This document shows, one piece after another, positions 6,445 through 27,069 of a DNA stretch of 27,299 nucleotides. Source of the DNA: Erysipelotrichaceae bacterium (GTDB taxonomy: Bacteria; Bacillota; Negativicutes; Veillonellales; Dialisteraceae); contig CAVJQK010000001.1 in assembly GCA_963651795.1 (NCBI GenBank), forward strand, positions 1 to 27,299. Reading direction: 5' to 3'. Position 1 is the stretch's first letter. Each line of letters starts with the position of its first letter. A program made the translations under genes and the position numbers. The notes under the pieces were generated by a model. The model ran no database searches and had not been told where the DNA came from. It saw nothing but the letters and a program-made list of their open reading frames with translations.

Positions 6445-7461
6445 TTATAATCCGAGATCGGCCCTCAGAGCTTCTTCTTCTTCGGCGGAGAGGTGAGCGG
6501 TGCGGGTGTAGGCGTCGGCGGCCTGTCTCATGGTGCGCATGCCGCGGCCCATTTCCATGTATCCGATGAGCTGGGGATCGCGGCCTTCGCGGATGATATG
6601 CGCCGTGGCGGGAATATTGATTAAAATCTCGCGGAGGAGCACCGTTTCTTCCTCCCGATGCCACAACGTCTGCGCGGCGACGGTGCGGAGGACGGCGGCG
6701 AGCGTTTCACGGATTTCCTTTTCTTTTTCGGACGGAAACGCGTGTACAATGCGGCCGATGGCTTCCAATGCGCTGCGATTGTGCATGGTCGCGAGGACGA
6801 GATGCCCCGTCTCGGCGGCCGTGAGCGCGGCTTTCATCGTCTCGGAATCGCGTAGCTCTCCGATAACGATAATATCGGGATCTTCGCGGAGCGCGGCGCG
6901 CACGCCTTCGGCAAAATCGGAGACGTCCGTACCGATTTCACGCTGATGAATGAGCGCTTTTTCGGATGTGAACGCATATTCGGCCGGATCTTCGACGGTG
7001 ACGATATGGCAGGGCTTATTTTGATTGATATCTTCAATGATATGCGCGAGCGTCGTCGTTTTCCCGGAGCCGGTCGGACCCGTCACGAGGACGAGACCGC
7101 TCGGATATTGTTTCACGTGAAACATCCAATCTTCATCCGGATCTTTCGGGAAATTTCCCGTTTCGGGCAGCAGCCGGAATGCGGCGCAACAAGTCCCGCC
7201 CGCGCGATAAATATGCAGGCGGAAACGATGCCCGCCCGCGGAAACGGCGGTATCGGCGGCGCCCGTTTCTTCCCAAATTTCTTTCTTTTCTTCGGAAAGG
7301 AGCGCCAAAGCGGCGGTGGGGAAGTCGGACATTTCCTCTTCCCAAATCCGCAATTTTCCGCAAAGGCGAATACGGACGGGGGCGCCTTCGGTCATGTGAA
7401 TATCGGTCAGGCGCGGGAAGGCGGCCGCGGCGTCGGCCAAAGTTTCCAATACGGTTTTCAT
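6445..7461 (-). CDS. pilT: Type IV pilus retraction ATPase PilT
   Basis: 338 aa with GPTGSGKTTT, TVEDPAEY, IHQREIG, ALREDPDIIVIGELRD, AAETGHLV and an AIRNLIRE-like ATAHIIRE motif. Confidence 0.92.
   Translation of the reverse strand: MKTVLETLADAAAAFPRLTDIHMTEGAPVRIRLCGKLRIWEEEMSDFPTAALALLSEEKKEIWEETGAADTAVSAGGHRFRLHIYRAGGTCCAAFRLLPETGNFPKDPDEDWMFHVKQYPSGLVLVTGPTGSGKTTTLAHIIEDINQNKPCHIVTVEDPAEYAFTSEKALIHQREIGTDVSDFAEGVRAALREDPDIIVIGELRDSETMKAALTAAETGHLVLATMHNRSALEAIGRIVHAFPSEKEKEIRETLAAVLRTVAAQTLWHREEETVLLREILINIPATAHIIREGRDPQLIGYMEMGRGMRTMRQAADAYTRTAHLSAEEEEALRADLGL
7109..7124. promoter_or_regulatory. parS: parS site (ParB/Spo0J loading), inside pilT
   Basis: Perfect palindrome TGTTTCACGTGAAACA. 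Confidence 0.9.
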
Positions 7462-7462
7462 A

Positions 7463-8515
7463 TCAATCTCCTTCGGAAATGCGGGCGGCGTCTTCTTCGG
7501 AAATGAGGCCTTCGGCGGCTTTTTGCCGTGCGGCGGCGGCCATGTCGGGCTGATGCCGGCGTTTCATTTCTTCGATGAAGGAAACGGGCGGCGCTTTTTC
7601 GCGTATTTTTTCACGGACGCGCTCGTCGACGGCCAGCATTTCGAAAATGCCGGTGCGGCCTCCGCCGTCGGACAGGCGGGCGAGGCGCTGGGAAATGAGC
7701 AAAGTGAGGGACGCCGCGAGAAGGTAGGGCGGGATGCCCATGTCAATGAGGCGAAGCGGCGCCTGAATGACGTTATTTGTATGCAAAGTCGAAAGGACGA
7801 GATGACCGGTGAGCGCGGCGTGAACGGCGATTTCGGCCGTTTCGCGGTCGCGGATTTCGCCGATCATGATGCAATCGGGATCCTGACGCACGAGAGCGCG
7901 GAGACCGCCCGCAAAGGTGAGACCGGCTTTTTCGTTCACCTGCACCTGCGTGATGCCACCGATTCTGTATTCGACGGGGTCCTCGATGGAAATGATATTG
8001 ACGGCCGGTGTATTGATGAGTTTCATCGCCGTGTAGAGCGTGGACGTTTTGCCGGAGCCGGTGGGCCCCGTCGTCAAAATCATGCCGCTTTTCCGAAGAA
8101 GCGCCGCACGGAATGTTTCCTCCTGGACGGGGAGCATACCGAGGCGGTTTTCTTCGATGAAGGGAAGATTTCCCGACAAAATACGAATGACAATGGTCTC
8201 GCCCCACATGGAGGGAAGGGCGGAAATGCGAAGATCGTAGCGCTCTTTTCCGTCCGTATGACGGGCGGCGCCGTCCTGCGGAATGCGCATTTCGCCCACA
8301 TTCATTCCGCCGATGACTTTGGCGCGGACGGCGAGATTTTTCACCATATCGGGCGCCAGACGCATAATTTCCGTCATTTCGCCGTCTTTCCGAATGCGGA
8401 CGCGGACGTATGTTTCCTGCGGTTCGATATGAATATCGCTGGCGCCGGCGCGGATGGCACGGGCGCAAATGTCATTTAATGCGGCTTCGGCGGACGCATA
8501 TCGGGTGATGTCCAT
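7463..8515 (-). CDS. pilB: Type IV pilus extension ATPase (PilB/GspE/ComGA family), short form
   Basis: 350 aa from ATG 8515 (GGGAGG RBS) with ASDIHIEP, PQDG, GPTGSGKTST, EDPVEY, RQDPDCIMIGEIRD and TGHLVLSTLH motifs. Confidence 0.9.
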   Translation of the reverse strand: MDITRYASAEAALNDICARAIRAGASDIHIEPQETYVRVRIRKDGEMTEIMRLAPDMVKNLAVRAKVIGGMNVGEMRIPQDGAARHTDGKERYDLRISALPSMWGETIVIRILSGNLPFIEENRLGMLPVQEETFRAALLRKSGMILTTGPTGSGKTSTLYTAMKLINTPAVNIISIEDPVEYRIGGITQVQVNEKAGLTFAGGLRALVRQDPDCIMIGEIRDRETAEIAVHAALTGHLVLSTLHTNNVIQAPLRLIDMGIPPYLLAASLTLLISQRLARLSDGGGRTGIFEMLAVDERVREKIREKAPPVSFIEEMKRRHQPDMAAAARQKAAEGLISEEDAARISEGD

Positions 8516-20193: not shown

Positions 20194-20228
20194 AAAAGAG
20201 CATCTCATATGTGAGGTGCTCTTTTTTT
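20194..20228. terminator. Bidirectional terminator between purA and the nitrogenase-like operon
   Basis: AAAA-GAGCATCTCA-TATG-TGAGGTGCTC-T7. Confidence 0.88.
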
Positions 20229-20230
20229 GT

Positions 20231-20276
20231 GCGACATTATCTCATGCCACATGCCCCATGCCCCATGCCTCATGCC
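20231..20276 (-). repeat. 5 x heptamer GGCATGN (minus strand) followed by GATAATGTCGC
   Basis: NCATGCC units at 20242, 20249, 20256, 20263 and 20270; GCGACA at 20231-20236. The outermost unit contains the stop codon of the adjacent gene. Confidence 0.85.
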
Positions 20277-21538
20277 TTTGTTTTTTCTCTCAATTTCGCA
20301 TTCCACAAATTCTCGTACAGATACGCCGCGCCGCGGAGGCCGCATTGAGGGAGATCCGTGAAAGAGACTTCATCGGGTGAGGGAAGGGCGATATGAAAAG
20401 CCGTGTACCGTTTCCCAAGGCGCGAGAGATGGCGCGTTTCATGGCTGCTTGAGAGCACGAGCCCGCCCGTCCAATTTTCGTAATCTTCTTTAATCGCCGC
20501 ATCATCGCGAAGGACGATGCGGAGAATATCGGCCGCCGGCGCCTGCTTTTCACTTGCCGCTTGCAGATGCAATATCATCTTTGCCGTATCGGCCCACTCG
20601 CCGCGCACCGCTTCCGCGATACCGATTGCGTCCGAAGGCGGCGCGGAAATGAAAATTTCATCAAACCAAAGCGATCCCCAGAGCGATTCCAAATTATTTC
20701 CTTTTCGAAGAAGATAAGAAGACAATTTTTCGGCTTCTTCGGAAACGTCACCCAAAGATCCCGCGCCGAGCGTTTCCGAAATGCGCCTAAGCCATGACAG
20801 CGTCCCCTCCGTCCCGTAGGGAAGGCCTGCGGAGATATAGGGAATCCCGAATTCGCGCTCCATTTGCCGCGCGGCCGCAAGCCCCAATTCGTCCCGCACC
20901 ACCACATTCAAAGCGGCGGAAGGCGCCCGCATGATATCATCCCAAGTGCTTCCCGCGCCCGGCATTGAAATAACCGAAATTCCCGCTTTCTCCAAAAGAC
21001 GCCGTATTTCCGCCGCATCTTCGCGGCCTTTTTTATGCACCGTCGAAAGCCCCAGCACATTGACGGAGCCCGGAATCGTTTCCGCCGGTTTCATTTCTTT
21101 GACAACGCGCAAAAATGCCTCGGAATATCCGCCTTCGAAACTACCTTTCAACCCGCCGCCGCCTACCGCATAGACAGGCCACGGCAGATTCATTTCGCTC
21201 GCAATCCCCTCTACGTCGTCGCCCACAAGGCTCACGCTGCAATTGCTCGCGATAAAGACACGCTCCGGATGCGCCGTTTTTAAAATAAAATCAAAACCCG
21301 CACGCAGATCCGCCTCTGTCCCGTAGACGAGCGAATTCGGCCCCACCTGCGTGCACGCGAAGCGCTCCTGCGCCATCGGATTTTCATTATCCACATATTT
21401 CATCGCATAAAAATAGCACCAAAGAGGACCGTTCACCAGCGTGAAACTTCCCGGAATCGAATCGAAAAACGCCGACATTCCCGTCAGTGCGCACGTGCTT
21501 CCGTGATGGCACGCCGCTTCCCATTCACACCGTGACAT
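20270..21538 (-). CDS. Nitrogenase component-1-like subunit 2 (NifK-position homologue)
   Basis: 422 aa from ATG 21538 with TCALTG, NGPLWC, LVYGTE, SNCSVSLVGDD, SVNVLG, APSAALNVV and LPYGTEGT motifs. Confidence 0.88.
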   Translation of the reverse strand: MSRCEWEAACHHGSTCALTGMSAFFDSIPGSFTLVNGPLWCYFYAMKYVDNENPMAQERFACTQVGPNSLVYGTEADLRAGFDFILKTAHPERVFIASNCSVSLVGDDVEGIASEMNLPWPVYAVGGGGLKGSFEGGYSEAFLRVVKEMKPAETIPGSVNVLGLSTVHKKGREDAAEIRRLLEKAGISVISMPGAGSTWDDIMRAPSAALNVVVRDELGLAAARQMEREFGIPYISAGLPYGTEGTLSWLRRISETLGAGSLGDVSEEAEKLSSYLLRKGNNLESLWGSLWFDEIFISAPPSDAIGIAEAVRGEWADTAKMILHLQAASEKQAPAADILRIVLRDDAAIKEDYENWTGGLVLSSSHETRHLSRLGKRYTAFHIALPSPDEVSFTDLPQCGLRGAAYLYENLWNAKLREKTKA

Positions 21539-22820
21539 AGGCCACGCCCCCTTTCTTTCCGTACCGACAAAGCAAACGATACATCGCACGAAGGAACAAA
21601 ATTTCTCCCTCCGTCCCCGCCTGCGGCACCATCGGAATAAAAAGCTGCTTGGCCGGCGTTTCGAAAATTTCATTCGTCGTCAAAAGCACATCCGCCTCAT
21701 CCATGATTTCTTTTCCCGCATCGGCCTCATAAAAAGGCACTTCGGGAAACGCAGCGCATTTTCCGCGGATTTCCGCTTTTTCCGCCTCCGTCAGATTGCC
21801 GTAAAAAACAATGCCCGACACGTTCATTTGCAAAATGGAAACAGATGCCAGCGTCTCGGCCGGATTGTACCATTTCGTGCTCCGCCCCGTCCCGATGACA
21901 AGTTTCTTTCCGCGCGTCACCGGCAAAATTGCCGCCGCGGCCGCCTCGATGCGTTTTGTTTCCGAAGCGATAATCTCCGCGCCTTTTTCCGGCACGCCGA
22001 GAAGTGCGGCCAATGCGGCCACCCAGTGCTTCGTTTCCGAAAATCCGATGGGATACACATCCCCCAATGTCCGGATGCCGTATTCGTCCTCCAATCGTTT
22101 CGCCAGTTTCAAAAGACCCGCCGACCGATCCGCCCCGCCCAATACGACGGAAAATTCGCAAGAGGAAATGTCGCCCCACTCCGCCGCGGGGACGTATCCC
22201 GGAAATTGATACGCCGCCGAAAGTCCGAAACGAGAAAGCAAGCGGCGGACTTCCGCCCCATATTGCCCCTCCGGCCCCATTTGATCGCCCAAGAGCAGCA
22301 CACGTCCCGGCACTTTTTCGCGCTTTTCGAAGAAACGGGAAATGACAAGATTTGCCGTTTCATAATAGCCGTCCCCGTATTCGCCGCCCAAAAATCCGGC
22401 AAAAGGCATCGCGATGACGGGAATCCCGTGCCGCGCCTCGGCCTCTTTCGCCGCTTCTTCCACATCGTCTCCGATGACACCCGCCACGCACGACGTCACG
22501 ACGAAAATGCAACGCGGGCGATACGTTTCCACGACATAAGAAATACAATCTTCCAATCGTCCGATGCCACCGAAAATACCGTCTTTTTCACGAAGATTCG
22601 AGGAAACGAGCGGCGCCGGCGTAAGCGAATCCGCCCCATTATCGGCAATGACGCGGAAACCGGAGCCCAGATCCATCGTCTGCCCCACATGCGCGCAGCC
22701 CAAGGGTCCGTGAAAAATGACGCAGCAGCCCGGACAAAAGGCGAGCGCCCGGTAAACGCCCACCATAGGGCAGCTGGACGATTTTGTTTTTGAAAGCAGC
22801 CATTTCGTCTTAAGTGCCAT
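21525..22820 (-). CDS. Nitrogenase component-1-like subunit 1 (NifD-position homologue)
   Basis: 431 aa from ATG 22820 with [25 protein letters not shown] and [11 protein letters not shown] motifs; overlaps both neighbours. Confidence 0.88.
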
Positions 22821-23622
22821 ACGCTTCCGCCAGCCTTTCCAGCTCCTCAAACGCAAGCGGCGTCGGAATCGAAAGCGCCGTCCCATCCCAAATCTTTTGG
22901 GCAAGACTTCGATACACATCGGCCTGCGGCGCCTCGGGCGCATATTCCAAGACCGTCATTTTCCGATTTTCCGCCACATTCACGATGGGATCGCGCGGAA
23001 TAAAGGAAACGAGATGCGTCCCGAGTCTTTCCGCAAATTCTTCCAACAGCTCTTTTTCACCGGGCACATTTCGACTGTTTCCGATAATCCCGGCCAAACG
23101 CACATCACCGCGCACTGCAAAGCGACGGATGCCTTTCGCGATATTATTGGCCGCATAGAGCGACATCAATTCGCCGGAAGAAACGATATAAATTTCCTTC
23201 GCGTACCCTTCTCGAATCGGCATGGCAAAACCACCGCAGACGACATCGCCCAGCACGTCGTAAATCGTCACATCCGCATCGGGCACGGCTTTTAATTTCT
23301 CCAAAAGTTCCAATGCGACGATAATCCCGCGCCCCGCGCATCCGACCCCGGGCTCAGGGCCTCCCGCTTCCGCGCAGGAAATTCCGTAAAATCCCGTGTG
23401 CACGATATCGGAAACGGAAATATCTTCGATCTCGCGCGTCCGCACCAAATCGAGCACCGTATCCTTGCAAATATGCCCGAGCAAAAGCCGTGTCGAATCG
23501 TTTTTCGGATCACACCCGATCTGGCAAACTTTTTTCCCGGAAAGCGCGAGTGCCGCCGAGACATGCGACGCCGTCGTCGATTTTCCGATCCCGCCCTTGC
23601 CGTAAAACGCAATCTTTTTCAT
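22810..23622 (-). CDS. NifH/BchL/CfbC-family ATP-dependent Fe protein (nitrogenase reductase-like)
   Basis: [33 protein letters not shown] and [14 protein letters not shown] motifs. AAGGAG RBS. Confidence 0.95.
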
Positions 23623-23661: not shown

Positions 23662-23670
23662 ATTATAGCA
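23662..23670 (-). promoter_or_regulatory. Extended -10 promoter of the nitrogenase-like operon
   Basis: Minus strand TGCTATAAT about 40 bp upstream of the ATG. Confidence 0.6.
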
Positions 23671-23701: not shown

Positions 23702-23867
23702 GCTGGGAGCAGGGAGCTAGGAGCTAGGAGCTAGGAGCTTTAAAGGAGCGCTGCGCGGCATTTTTATAATCGGCGCTTCGCGCCTCGCCGGCTTTGCCGG
23801 CATAAAACAGATTTGTCGCCGAAGGCGACACCTTTAAAAGCCGTTACCCGTTAGCCGTCAGCTATTG
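23702..23867. repeat. Complete two-armed repeat element (MITE/REP-like) with inverted end boxes, four triloop hairpins and heptamer arrays on both sides
   Basis: (GCTAGGA)-type x5 at 23702-23736, GCTTTAAAGG at 23737-23746, hairpins at 23749-57, 23772-84, 23787-801 and 23814-30, CCTTTAAAAGC at 23831-23841, and (GCCGTTA)-type x3-4 at 23840-23867. Confidence 0.8.
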
Positions 23868-23922: not shown

Positions 23923-23941
23923 CCATTTGCTCTAAATGGAA

Positions 23942-26779
23942 TTATTCTTCTTCAATGCCCTCTTCTTCCAGCACTTTCGCACAGCGGGCGCAGAGATGCG
24001 GATGCTTGGAATCGGATCCGACCGTCGGATCGTGTTTCCAGCAGCGTTCGCATTTTTCGCGTGTGGCGGCCGCGACTGCGACTTTCACGGTACCCGCTTC
24101 ATTGGAAACGGACGTTTCCGGTGCATGTTCCGTCCCGGAAACGAGCGTCACGGTGCTGACGATGCAGAAATCGGGAAGGAAATCTTTCATTTCGGCAAGC
24201 GCCTCGTAATCTTCACCGTCGGCGTAAACGGTGACATCGGCATCCAAAGCGTGCCCGATTTCTTTGGCGACGCGCGCTTCTTCGAGTGCTTTCGTGATGA
24301 CGGAGCGGAGCGCCAGACGCTTATTCCAAGTTTCCTCAAGCGCCGTATCCAGATATTCCGGCTTCGCTTCCGGCCAATCCGCCAGATGGACGCTGGCTTC
24401 GCGATTCGTTGCGGCGGGGAGTGCCTGCCAGACTTCTTCGGCCGTGAAGGAAATGACCGGCGCCATGATGCGGACGAGTGTCGTCAGAATTTCGTACATG
24501 GCCGTCTGCGCGCTGCGGCGGGCGAGGCTGTCGGATTTTTCGGTGTAAAGACGATCTTTCAGGACGTCCAGATAAATGGCGGAGAGATCCACGGTGCAGA
24601 AATTGTGTACCGCATGATACATGACGTGGAATTGATATTCTTCCATCGCCGCGGTGACTTCTTCTTTCACGCGTTCGAGGCGAAGGAGCGCCCAGCGATC
24701 GAATTCCGTCATATCCGCATAGGCGACGGCATCCGTTTCCGGATTAAAATCGTAAAGATTGCCGAGGAGATAGCGGAATGTATTTCTGATTTTCCGATAC
24801 ACTTCGCTCATCGCTTTGATGATTTTATTGCCGAGACGCACGTCGCTCTGGTAATCGACGCTGGAAATCCAGAGGCGCAATACATCGGCGCCGAATTTGT
24901 CGATAATTTCCTGCGGCGCGACGACGTTTCCGACAGATTTGGACATTTTCCGTCCGTTTTCATCCATGGTGAAACCGTGCGTCAAAAGTGCCTGATACGG
25001 TGCGTGCCCATTCACGGCGACGCTCGTCAGAAGGGAGCTGTGGAACCAGCCGCGATGCTGATCGGCGCCTTCCAGATACATTTCGACCGGGTAATCCATA
25101 TCCGGCGCTTGACGGCAAACGCCGTTCCACGTGGAGCCGGAGTCGAACCACACATCCATGATATCCGTTTCTTTTTTGAAATGCGTGCCGCCGCAATGCG
25201 GGCATTTGAAACCTTCGGGCAGAAGCTCTTCGGCCGTATGCGCCCACCAGGCGTCGGTGCTTTCTTTTTCGACCCATTTCATGACGGATTCGACGGATTC
25301 GTCGGTGATAATCGGTTTCCCGCATTCTTCGCAATAGAAGGCCGGAATCGGGACGCCCCAGCTTCTCTGGCGGGAAATGCACCAATCCTGGCGATCGCGA
25401 ATCATATTGTAAAGACGGTCGTGGCCCCAAGCCGGGTAGAATTTCGTATCATCCACGGCTTTCAAAGCCGCTTCGCGGAATTGATTGATGGAGGCGAACC
25501 ACTGGTCCGTCGCGCGGTAAATAATCGGTTCTTTGCAGCGCCAGCAATGCGCATATTGATGGTGGAGCGTCTTTTTGCCGAGGAGCATGCCCGCATGGGC
25601 GAGAGCCGCGATTTCTTTTCCTTCCGCATCCCAGGTGGAGAGGCCGACGAGATTTTCATCTTCGCAGGCGGCCGTCATGTTTCCTTTTTCATCGACGGGG
25701 CAGAGCGGATCCAAATGAAGGAGTCCTTTATTATTGTACGATTGTACGACTTCAAAGTCGTCGACGCCGTGGCCCGGTGCCGTATGAACGCAGCCCGTGC
25801 CGGCTTCCGTCGTGACATGGTTTCCGAGAAGAACATAGGACAGACGGTCGATAAGCGGATGACGGAACGTCGCGAGTTCCCATTCTTCACCCGTCATTTC
25901 GCGGCCGACGAGCTCATAATCTTTTACGCCGCAATCGGCCAGGGACGCTTCGTACAAATCTTTGCACATCAGATAGTACGCATCGGCTTCTTTATCGTGC
26001 ACCCATACATACGTGAATTTCGGATTGACACAAATGGCAAGGTTCGCCGGAATGGTCCATGGCGTCGTCGTCCAAATGACGGCAAACAATTTTTCCTGCG
26101 GCACACCCACAGGTCCCAGACCCTTAATGTCAACGGCCGGGAATTTGACGTAAATAGAAGGAGATTTGCGATCCTTGTATTCAATTTCCGCTTCGGCCAG
26201 AGCCGTCTCGCAATGCGGACACCAATAGACAGCTTTCTTTCCTTTGTAAATATATCCTTTGGATGCCATTTTTCCGAAAACTTCCAGCTCGCACGCTTCC
26301 ACCTTCGGATCGAATGTCACATACGGATGATCCCAATCACCTATGACACCCAGGCGAATAAAATCCTGTTTCTGAATTTCAATCCATTTTTTCGCATATG
26401 CCAAACATTTACGACGAAGTTCCAATGGCGTCATATTGGCGCGATCTTCGCCGGAGCTTTTCAGCACCGCATATTCGATCGGCAGCCCGTGCGTATCCCA
26501 GCCCGGCACATAATTCGCGTATTTGCCGCGCATCGCATGATATTTCACAATAATATCTTTAATCGTTTTATTCAAAGCGTGCCCGATGTGAATCGTGCCG
26601 TTCGCATATGGAGGCCCGTCGTGCAATACAAATTTCGGCGCACCGTTTCTTTTTTCCAAACGTTTATGATACAAATCCAAATCCTGCCAGAATTTCAAAA
26701 ATCCCGGTTCCTTTTGCGGCAAATTACCGCGCATCGGAAAATCCGTCTGCGGCAAATGCAGCGTCTTGCTGTAATCCAT
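23942..26779 (-). CDS. ileS: Isoleucine--tRNA ligase (bacterial type 1)
   Basis: HDGPPYANG, HIGH, WTTTPWT, DWCISRQR, KMSKS and a C-terminal CERCW..CARC Zn finger. GGAGG RBS. Confidence 0.98.
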   Translation of the reverse strand: MDYSKTLHLPQTDFPMRGNLPQKEPGFLKFWQDLDLYHKRLEKRNGAPKFVLHDGPPYANGTIHIGHALNKTIKDIIVKYHAMRGKYANYVPGWDTHGLPIEYAVLKSSGEDRANMTPLELRRKCLAYAKKWIEIQKQDFIRLGVIGDWDHPYVTFDPKVEACELEVFGKMASKGYIYKGKKAVYWCPHCETALAEAEIEYKDRKSPSIYVKFPAVDIKGLGPVGVPQEKLFAVIWTTTPWTIPANLAICVNPKFTYVWVHDKEADAYYLMCKDLYEASLADCGVKDYELVGREMTGEEWELATFRHPLIDRLSYVLLGNHVTTEAGTGCVHTAPGHGVDDFEVVQSYNNKGLLHLDPLCPVDEKGNMTAACEDENLVGLSTWDAEGKEIAALAHAGMLLGKKTLHHQYAHCWRCKEPIIYRATDQWFASINQFREAALKAVDDTKFYPAWGHDRLYNMIRDRQDWCISRQRSWGVPIPAFYCEECGKPIITDESVESVMKWVEKESTDAWWAHTAEELLPEGFKCPHCGGTHFKKETDIMDVWFDSGSTWNGVCRQAPDMDYPVEMYLEGADQHRGWFHSSLLTSVAVNGHAPYQALLTHGFTMDENGRKMSKSVGNVVAPQEIIDKFGADVLRLWISSVDYQSDVRLGNKIIKAMSEVYRKIRNTFRYLLGNLYDFNPETDAVAYADMTEFDRWALLRLERVKEEVTAAMEEYQFHVMYHAVHNFCTVDLSAIYLDVLKDRLYTEKSDSLARRSAQTAMYEILTTLVRIMAPVISFTAEEVWQALPAATNREASVHLADWPEAKPEYLDTALEETWNKRLALRSVITKALEEARVAKEIGHALDADVTVYADGEDYEALAEMKDFLPDFCIVSTVTLVSGTEHAPETSVSNEAGTVKVAVAAATREKCERCWKHDPTVGSDSKHPHLCARCAKVLEEEGIEEE

Positions 26780-26821
26780 GTCCCCAATCCTCCAAAAAAA
26801 TATTTCAAAAAATCATCGGAA

Positions 26822-27035
26822 ACAAAAAAAATCCCGCCCGTAAGGGGCGAGAAACTTTCCCGTGGTACCACCCTCATGACGCAAGCGCCACTCGGTACAG
26901 TTAACGATGTCCCGGCGGGGCATTTCCTCCCCGCATGCTCCGGAGTGATTCATTCGCGCATCCCGTACCCTCTTCCACCGCCCGAGGGCTCTCTATGCCG
27001 GTCCGACACACGAAACGTCTCCATCTCTGCAATAT
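26822..27035 (-). ncRNA. T-box riboswitch leader (Ile specifier) of ileS
   Basis: Minus strand shows AGAGAG and GGTGGAA stem-I motifs, the specifier ATC at 26949-26947, the T-box AGGGTGGTACCACG at 26874-26861, and the terminator TCTCGCCC-CTTAC-GGGCGGGA-T8. Confidence 0.95.
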
Positions 27036-27040
27036 GGAAT

Positions 27041-27069
27041 ATATTATAAGAAATTCAAAGCCGCGTCAA
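27041..27069 (-). promoter_or_regulatory. Promoter of the ileS T-box leader
   Basis: Minus strand TTGACG (27069-27064) with TATAAT at 15 bp or TAATAT at 17 bp spacing. Confidence 0.6.

Follow-up and report, generated by a model that had tools for sequence, protein, structure and literature searches.

A nitrogenase-like nflHDK operon of gut and rumen Negativicutes with P-cluster-type ligands, no detectable NifB and a putative link to corrinoid metabolism

Introduction

What is the role of a P-cluster-type site that stands alone? This question is raised by an operon in a stretch of 27,299 nucleotides (nt) of DNA, hereafter the window, which is the whole 27.3-kb contig CAVJQK010000001.1 of a metagenome-assembled genome (1.50 Mb, 260 contigs, 85% complete; assembly GCA_963651795.1, deposited as Erysipelotrichaceae bacterium and placed by GTDB in the Dialisteraceae). 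Its three genes, here called nflH, nflD and nflK, encode a NifH-like Fe protein and two component-1 subunits with a full P-cluster ligand set, without second-cluster ligands or NifB. An earlier annotation made by a model from the letters of the window (the original prediction) had described them as an orphan nitrogenase-like operon. Here, we provide evidence that NflHDK is very probably a NifB-independent nitrogenase-like reductase with a cysteine-rich cluster at the D-K interface and no second metallocluster, and is neither a nitrogenase nor a methylthio-alkane reductase (MAR; proteins Mar). On the substrate our judgement is evenly poised: nflHDK may encode an ATP-driven, NifB-independent reductase that acts on a tetrapyrrole, most likely a corrinoid.

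The operon is an uncharacterised variant within a known superfamily. In the 2026 review by North and Shafaat, functions are assigned to Nfa (Group IV-A), CfbCD (IV-B), Mar (IV-C) and Isr (IV-F), Groups IV-D, IV-E and VI are unassigned, and a carbide-containing cluster made by NifB is held to be probably present in most Group IV enzymes (PMC13474568; this and the other papers are cited from excerpts of their text). The ligand pattern has been known since 2012, when Dos Santos et al. described NifE/N-like clades with 3 + 3 P-cluster cysteines and no ligands for the iron-molybdenum cofactor (FeMo-cofactor) (PMC3464626). What is added here is the host range of the clade, its NifB independence, a seventh conserved cysteine and a corrinoid context.

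Identity of the nflHDK operon

The three genes are arranged as follows.

22810..23622, minus strand: nflH, NifH-like Fe protein of 270 amino acids (aa) with a Walker P-loop and both [4Fe-4S] cysteines
21525..22820, minus strand: nflD, alpha-type component-1 subunit, 431 aa
20270..21538, minus strand: nflK, beta-type component-1 subunit, 422 aa

The reading frames overlap by 11 nt (H/D) and 14 nt (D/K). NflH matched Pfam family PF00142 (E 4.2e-109), while NflD and NflK matched PF00148 (E 3.1e-53 and 1e-52), and with a NifH-family ATPase and PF00148 subunits encoded together the operon belongs to the nitrogenase-like (NFL) superfamily. Upstream lies ileS, and purA and purB converge on nflK, all three scoring above their NCBIfam cut-offs. 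The open reading frame (ORF) listing, the Pfam matches and these flank matches bear out the three overlapping H-D-K genes that the original prediction had placed between purA and ileS.

P-cluster-type ligands without a second cofactor

Ligand residues were compared in a MAFFT alignment of NflD, NflK, 115 further rows and annotated Nif references, namely NifH, NifD, NifK, NifE and NifN from a Rahnella aceris plasmid and NifH, NifD, NifK and NifE from a Clostridium butyricum plasmid. NflD carries cysteines in the motifs SCPMVG (C17) and HGPLGC (C42) and at C111, and NflK in the motifs TCALTG (C16), NGPLWC (C41) and SNCSVSLVGDD (C100). A single set of columns holds these six residues together with C62, C88 and C154 of Rahnella NifD and C69, C94 and C152 of Rahnella NifK; judged by alignment columns, NflD and NflK thus have the 3 + 3 P-cluster cysteines that define nitrogenase, and the three cysteines per subunit claimed earlier are present in the translations at the NifD/NifK P-cluster positions. 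A HMMER alignment with Rhodospirillum rubrum MarD set C42 and C111 of NflD opposite Cys91 and Cys158, both named as P-cluster ligands in the Mar structure paper (PMC12552129). In the core clade of 22 representatives, C42 and C111 occur in all 22 and C17 in 18, with gaps in the other four, and among K sequences of related loci C10, C16, C41 and C100 are each kept in 77 of 77. NflK C10 is therefore a seventh conserved cysteine of the family, close to the interface.

The site of the second cofactor presents a different picture. At the NifD C274 column, which holds the FeMo-cofactor cysteine, NifD, NifE and Mar-type proteins have Cys and NflD has Gly; no Cys occurs in this stretch in any of the 26 sequences of a family alignment (A1), nor in the column itself in the 14 rows shown of a wider 69-representative clade. 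The H441 column has His solely in the two annotated NifD references and none in NflD. Nitrogenase's Cys275 and His442 (Azotobacter vinelandii numbering) are thus both missing from NflD, and the MAFFT alignment confirms what had been read by eye, a Gly at the Cys275 position and no His442 equivalent. Likewise, MarD Cys270, a cluster ligand (PMC12552129), lies opposite residue D231 of NflD in the HMMER alignment, and in alignment A1 the NflD family lacks a conserved His across the C-terminal region that would correspond to MarD His429, so that neither of the [Fe8S9C] ligands of Mar is found in NflD.

An AlphaFold2 model of NflD (mean predicted local distance difference test, pLDDT, 84.8) was matched by Foldseek to NifD, NifE and MarD, all at template modelling scores (TM) of 0.60-0.67 (NifE 0.65-0.67), which does not discriminate between them. 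The modelled NflD-NflK complex scored 0.87, the best of three controls scoring 0.00; in a benchmark this mark was attained by 116 of 157 solved complexes and by 2 of 215 mismatched pairs. Contact agreement between runs was at least 88% and partner pLDDT at least 91. Confident interface residues were 12-17, 39-48 and 110-112 of NflD and 4-10, 13-18, 38-41 and 99-101 of NflK, and the modelled interface takes in all six cysteines, on whose convergence the original prediction had depended, as well as NflK C10. Because NifDK and MarDK complexes have already been solved, this pass indicates likeness and not binding.

Curated models and cofactor machinery

None of the curated NCBIfam models was passed by NflH, NflD or NflK. 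NflH scored 384.2 bits with the nifH model TIGR01287 (cut-off 394.35) and 368 with CfbC (402). For NflD the scores were 98 bits with N2-ase-Ialpha (486), 96 with nifE (505), 80.8 with nifD (653.6), 45 with methan_mark_13 (TIGR03282; 268.4) and 42.8 with BchN (420), and for NflK the best model was nifE at 86 bits, with BchB at 80.7 (490); nifE thus ranked first for NflK and second for NflD. Among solved structures, the closest relative of NflD was MarD (9fmg_A; 93 bits, E 1.5e-25) and that of NflK was ChlB (70 bits).

The source genome, at 85% completeness, holds two PF00148 genes, nflD and nflK themselves, and one strong PF00142 match, nflH, with a second of 27 bits on another contig. The genome search for nifB and nifEN that had been proposed with the original prediction returned no NifB match and no further PF00148 genes, and NifB was likewise not found in any of five operon-carrying genomes of the same family with a completeness of 99-100% (0/5). 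A nitrogenase would be expected to have NifB, usually with NifEN, in its genome and to score above the curated cut-offs; here neither was observed. With nif, vnf and anf models far below cut-off, empty FeMo-cofactor columns and no NifB here or in five relatives, the earlier exclusion of N2 fixation stands.

Family range and phylogeny

A word-indexed search returned 162 relatives at E <= 0.001, most of the full-length ones being 430-432 aa long and the few named ones being Dialister "nitrogenase component 1." Scanning one genome per species gave 131 relatives, of which 80 were kept for locus comparison, making 81 loci with the window. Nearly all of those kept are labelled Dialister, Veillonellaceae, Acidaminococcaceae, Succiniclasticum or Phascolarctobacterium, apart from a few oddly labelled bins, and come from human gut, rumen and similar sources; the suggestion of a likely host-associated anaerobe fits these gut and rumen relatives well. 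Matches at E <= 1e-60 were found in 47 of 151 sampled genomes of the window's order, comprising 39 of 51 in its family, 9 of 11 in its genus and none in two other large genera (36 genomes each); among the sampled Dialister genomes, 30 have the operon and 7 lack it. The family is a near-core gene set of abundant B12-dependent, succinate-utilising gut and rumen Negativicutes, and accounts for part of the "pseudo-nif" signal in gut metagenomes, in which Mise et al. (2021) recorded "nifD" reads from Phascolarctobacterium faecium. Searching 1.84 billion representatives with a profile yielded 2388 matches at E <= 0.001 and 126 at E <= 1e-30, falling into a core family above 275 bits, a second tier at 170-236 and a remainder at or below 155. 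NCBIfam models were run on 96 of the 150 best representatives, those from P0144 onwards with a length of 380 aa or more, and a NifEN fusion was the only one to pass any cut-off.

Phylogeny was assessed with a quick IQ-TREE run (LG+G4; support by the Shimodaira-Hasegawa-like approximate likelihood ratio test, SH-aLRT, only) on 126 rows, which were the best matches of the NflD profile and included no labelled CfbD, DPOR, COR, Isr, Nfa or Group VI proteins. NflD falls in a clade of 22 representatives (SH-aLRT 97) within one of 45 (99), which is sister to a clade of 24 representatives with NifH-D fusions (96); all 69 representatives (99) adjoin the NifD/NifE references (94), and deep branches are weakly supported. 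Proteins of about 490 aa form a separate clade, whose member P0223 scores 616 bits to MarD 9fmg_A. On this quick tree, NflD appears to lie outside both the NifD/NifE and the MarD-type clades, and the nesting within a MarD-type or NifD clade that would have told against the original prediction was not seen.

NifH-NflD fusions of 680-765 aa account for 13 of the 150 best representatives (P0187, P0188, P0202, P0203, P0221, P0233, P0240, P0246, P0253, P0258, P0260, P0261 and P0265) and for most of the sister clade. The Cys275-column Cys is absent in the two fusion rows shown. In 2012 Dos Santos et al. referred to fusions of this kind but gave no data (PMC3464626).

The nflHDK family is under purifying selection: against the locus L005, 91% identical, the ratio of nonsynonymous to synonymous substitution rates (dN/dS) was low in all three genes (H 0.05, D 0.15, K 0.09), with dS at 0.34-0.43. 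L005 is the closest related locus (91% identity in D), yet its nflH frame (about positions 7200-8000) seems to be interrupted or partial, with an ORF of 95 aa and tblastn coverage of 160 of 270 aa, which may reflect a frameshift, masking or an assembly fault. An nflD match in a complete Dialister genome (G042:C1:990088-991371) has one in-frame TAG, which may mark a pseudogene or a sequencing error.

Comparison with characterised systems

Given these data, the candidate functions can be weighed. It is extremely unlikely that NflHDK is a working nitrogenase or methylthio-alkane reductase. Though the H-D-K gene order and all six P-cluster cysteines are retained and NflH shares 56-58% identity with the NifH references of Rahnella and C. 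butyricum, with its P-loop and both cluster cysteines aligned, equivalents of Cys275, His442 and MarD Cys270 are missing, no NifB, NifE or NifN was found in the source genome, equivalog scores are far below cut-offs and NflD groups outside both clades; the ligand and NifB tests already contradict this function. MarHDK (Group IV-C; PDB 9FMG and 9D9U) shares the H-D-K architecture and the two P-cluster positions at Cys91 and Cys158. Unlike MarD, NflD has a non-Cys residue at Cys270 and no conserved His near His429, is about 90 residues shorter and belongs to a separate clade, and the operon has no MarB/NifB match and no sulfur-gene context.

Another explanation is that NflDK is a NifEN-like scaffold or maturase whose role is to assemble or carry a cluster or cofactor used by another enzyme, with no catalysis of its own, an idea raised for nitrogenase-like proteins by Dos Santos et al. 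(PMC3464626). The nifE model ranks first or second for both subunits, sizes are similar, the fold matches NifE at the TM values given above, and the wider clade adjoins NifD/NifE in the tree. However, NifEN needs NifB and there is none to provide a precursor cluster, NflD lacks the Cys that NifE has in the C274 column, and the NifN references retain the middle one of three interface cysteines alone, a loss of two that is not seen in NflK, where all three are kept; the NifEN pattern does not fit. The source genome also holds no client nitrogenase-type enzyme, and we regard the scaffold role as very improbable.

With the tetrapyrrole reductases, namely the dark-operative protochlorophyllide oxidoreductase (DPOR; BchLNB/ChlLNB), the chlorophyllide oxidoreductase (COR; BchXYZ) and CfbCD, NflHDK shares a proposed principle, in which a NifH-like dimer would pass electrons to an interface Fe-S cluster and on to a bound tetrapyrrole, with no large cofactor and no NifB. 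The ligand patterns differ, as had been claimed for DPOR and CfbD. DPOR uses three Cys plus Asp (PMC13474568), whereas both Nfl subunits keep three Cys, with C10 of NflK in addition; COR draws three Cys from Y and one from Z, whereas NflK keeps all three (both contrasts are by description). CfbD is a single subunit forming a homomer (PMC13474568), whereas Nfl has two distinct paralogues, and methan_mark_13 gives NflD its score of 45 bits against 268.4. The DPOR, COR and CfbD models all fall far short of their cut-offs and no bch or cfb genes lie nearby. The six conserved cysteines also fit neither Group VI (Elusimicrobia; at most four of the six Cys) nor Isr, which diverges at the P-cluster Cys, both being set apart by their descriptions (PMC13474568). 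In ligand terms there is a likeness to the "yellow" NifE/N-related clades of Dos Santos et al., with the same 3 + 3 Cys, no FeMo-cofactor ligands and a proposed interface Fe-S cluster that would feed an active site (PMC3464626); a link to CobN, CbiZ, transporters or a riboswitch is not described in the excerpted text of that paper.

Gene neighbourhoods of relatives

Neighbourhoods were compared by calling the ORFs of 80 loci plus the window, settling overlaps by conservation and clustering the proteins by BLASTP. The sole unit common to all loci is H-D-K itself, with D and K in 81 of 81 and H in 75. Neighbours were counted in those 62 loci that extend for 5 kb or more downstream of K:

CobN: 35/62 loci, 942 bits against a CobN equivalog cut-off of 822
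Peripla_BP_2 binding protein: 33/62 loci
radical S-adenosylmethionine (SAM)/SPASM protein: 33/62 loci
FecCD permease: 24/62 loci
MerR-type regulator: 23/62 loci
ChlI/BchI-like ATPase: 10/62 loci
CbiZ: 8/62 loci
signal-peptide CbiK: 4/62 loci

At least one of CobN, binding protein, FecCD, ChlI, CbiZ and CbiK is present in 40 of the 62. In Phascolarctobacterium the order is MerR (divergent), H D K, binding protein, FecCD, CobN and radical SAM; in the Dialister succinatiphilus group it is H D K, CobN, radical SAM and ChlI; and in another Dialister group a binding protein and CbiK diverge from H D K. None of the listed neighbours occurs in Succiniclasticum, in one Veillonellales group, in three rpoB-linked loci or in the group of the window itself. 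The description of the operon as an orphan thus holds for the window, but its relatives show a tetrapyrrole/corrinoid neighbourhood. At Rfam gathering thresholds, one locus (L067) has a cobalamin riboswitch (107.8 bits) directly upstream of nflH, between the end of an ATP-binding cassette (ABC) ATPase gene (6901) and the nflH start (7187). An nhmmer search with this element matched itself alone.

Three Dialister genomes also carry second-tier D'K' pairs (L094/G042, L095/G090 and L096/G084; 208-238 bits to the D profile) with no adjoining H, which presumably borrow NflH from the HDK operon. They are flanked by genes for a TonB-dependent receptor, a CN-hydrolase, FecCD, an ABC ATPase, binding proteins, CbiZ and CobN. 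Because the corrinoid-type neighbourhoods are recurrent, if non-universal, across the family and around the D'K' paralogue, a tetrapyrrole, most likely a corrinoid, is our best guess at the substrate, and CobN, CbiZ, BtuF/FecCD-type transport and the one B12 riboswitch would provide a concrete substrate class for a family previously without one. In our literature search (CC-licensed PMC and bioRxiv), no paper was found to connect these enzymes in Negativicutes with CobN or with corrinoid genes.

The source genome has parts of the same inventory on other contigs, with a cluster of MerR-like, FecCD, ATPase and binding-protein genes (contig C105), a signal-peptide CbiK 73% identical to a Dialister one (C142) and a distant radical SAM/SPASM relative (C119). 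It also has three methylmalonyl-CoA-mutase-family genes and CbiD, and therefore makes and uses corrinoids. HemB was not found in it, though 46 of 51 family genomes have this gene.

Proposed mechanism and substrate

We propose that an NflH dimer would take a low-potential electron onto its [4Fe-4S] cluster and that ATP hydrolysis would drive this electron to an Fe-S cluster at the NflD-NflK interface, held by six or seven cysteines and probably either a P-cluster-type [8Fe-7S] cluster or a [4Fe-4S] pair. The interface cluster would then reduce an organic substrate that the protein itself binds, in the manner of DPOR, COR and CfbCD, with neither FeMo-cofactor nor L-cluster between them. This substrate would be a tetrapyrrole, with a corrinoid (ring or cobalt) favoured over a porphyrin, and in relatives the enzyme may act alongside metal insertion or removal by CobN/ChlI and BtuF/FecCD-type uptake. 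The observations on which the proposal builds are the domain families, the ligand columns, the absence of NifB, the clade position, the neighbourhoods and the purifying selection.

Several points weigh against a tetrapyrrole substrate. (i) The window operon is flanked by ileS and purA/purB only, and 22 of the 62 loci, Succiniclasticum and the rpoB-linked ones among them, have none of the six named neighbours. (ii) CobN was not found in the source genome and, elsewhere in the genome, occurs in two of five other carriers and is absent from three. (iii) The cobalamin riboswitch was found in just one of the 34 sources scanned (the window and 33 loci). (iv) The best-scoring models for the linked radical SAM gene are peptide-maturase and not tetrapyrrole ones. 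(v) The CobN-linked loci include many close relatives within Phascolarctobacterium, which makes the counts non-independent. (vi) Genomes of the same family without the operon still carry HemB and CbiJ, and the enzyme is therefore dispensable for de novo corrin synthesis.

Three stronger versions of the corrinoid link were rejected: CobN as an obligate partner, for its absence from the source genome and those three carriers; the riboswitch as a general feature, at one source in 34; and NflDK as a replacement for CbiJ, the ring reductase of anaerobic B12 synthesis, which is present in five of five carriers and five of five non-carriers.

A possibility that has to be taken seriously, if on the unlikely side, is that the same NifB-independent architecture serves a small-molecule substrate other than a tetrapyrrole, e.g., an organosulfur compound as in Mar and Isr or another unsaturated metabolite, with the corrinoid-type neighbours being coincidental or regulatory. 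The characterised Group IV enzymes act on sulfur compounds (PMC13474568), the operon stands alone among housekeeping genes in the window and in loci L005, L006, L007 and L011, and points (i) and (ii) above fit this explanation. However, in none of the 81 loci were sulfur-assimilation genes seen alongside, CobN and transporters turn up with the enzyme in at least four gene orders and again around D'K', and both the Mar ligand Cys270 and NifB/MarB are absent. MAR activity was also confined to Group IV-C in a 2026 mBio paper, and none was shown by the systems examined to date from Groups IV-A, D, E and F (PMC13753814); Dialister, Phascolarctobacterium and Succiniclasticum are not named in the searched supplements of that paper.

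The substrate could instead be haem or protoporphyrin, with the CobN-like protein and NflHDK together performing anaerobic haem de-chelation and porphyrin processing as in the HmuS loci of Bacteroidota. HmuS, a CobN-family protein, strips iron from haem anaerobically (PMC12583661), the Peripla_BP_2/FecCD transporter families also import haem (a weak IsdE match was seen), and the adjoining MerR-type regulator would be compatible with this route. Yet the linked chelatase, compared with solved structures, is far nearer CobN (724 bits) than HmuS (396), with ChlH at 549, and CbiZ, the B12 riboswitch and CbiK point to corrinoids, making a haem substrate improbable.

Within the corrinoid reading, a more specific proposal can be made, which is tentative and on balance rather doubtful: NflHDK may be an ATP-driven corrinoid reductase in which a NifB-free P-cluster-type [8Fe-7S] cluster, with no second cofactor, passes electrons of very low potential straight to the cobalt or macrocycle of the bound corrinoid. 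If true, this would enable CobN/ChlI-dependent metal insertion or exchange and would let Dialister, Phascolarctobacterium and Succiniclasticum of the gut salvage foreign corrinoids. It would also add a fourth tetrapyrrole branch to the nitrogenase superfamily and be the first case of a P-cluster serving as the terminal catalytic cluster.

Transcription signals, repeats and antisense frame

Three putative signals flank the operon.

23662..23670, minus strand: extended -10 promoter element TGcTATAAT, 40 nt upstream of the nflH start (read by eye, with a presumed promoter function)
23814..23830, minus strand: terminator-like hairpin of ileS, called by a terminator scan, which separates ileS from the nfl promoter
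20194..20225, minus strand: hairpin with U-rich tail between the convergent nflK and purA, from RNAfold of positions 20272-20186 of the minus strand

The extended -10 element and terminator that the operon had been said to own are thus present as sequence elements, but neither was reported by the scanners: the consensus scanner found no full sigma-70 -35/-10 match upstream of nflH, and the nflK/purA hairpin is not among the terminator scanner's calls. This hairpin is likely a shared terminator of both genes.

A frame of 1037 aa (23936-27049, plus strand) lies antisense to ileS (23942-26779, minus strand) and exceeds it in length. It is spurious and typical of such composition; longest-ORF calling picked it, and overlapping frames were instead resolved by conservation.

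Two 7-bp tandem arrays border the operon, CATGCCC x4.9 at 20243-20276, overlapping the nflK stop codon, and GCTAGGA x5.4 at 23702-23739, upstream of the nfl promoter. Across the whole 1.5-Mb genome, TRF reported 400 arrays of period 7, 108 of period 14 and 38 of period 21 with varied units; the heptamer arrays are not specific to the operon, and their load is unusually dense for a small genome.

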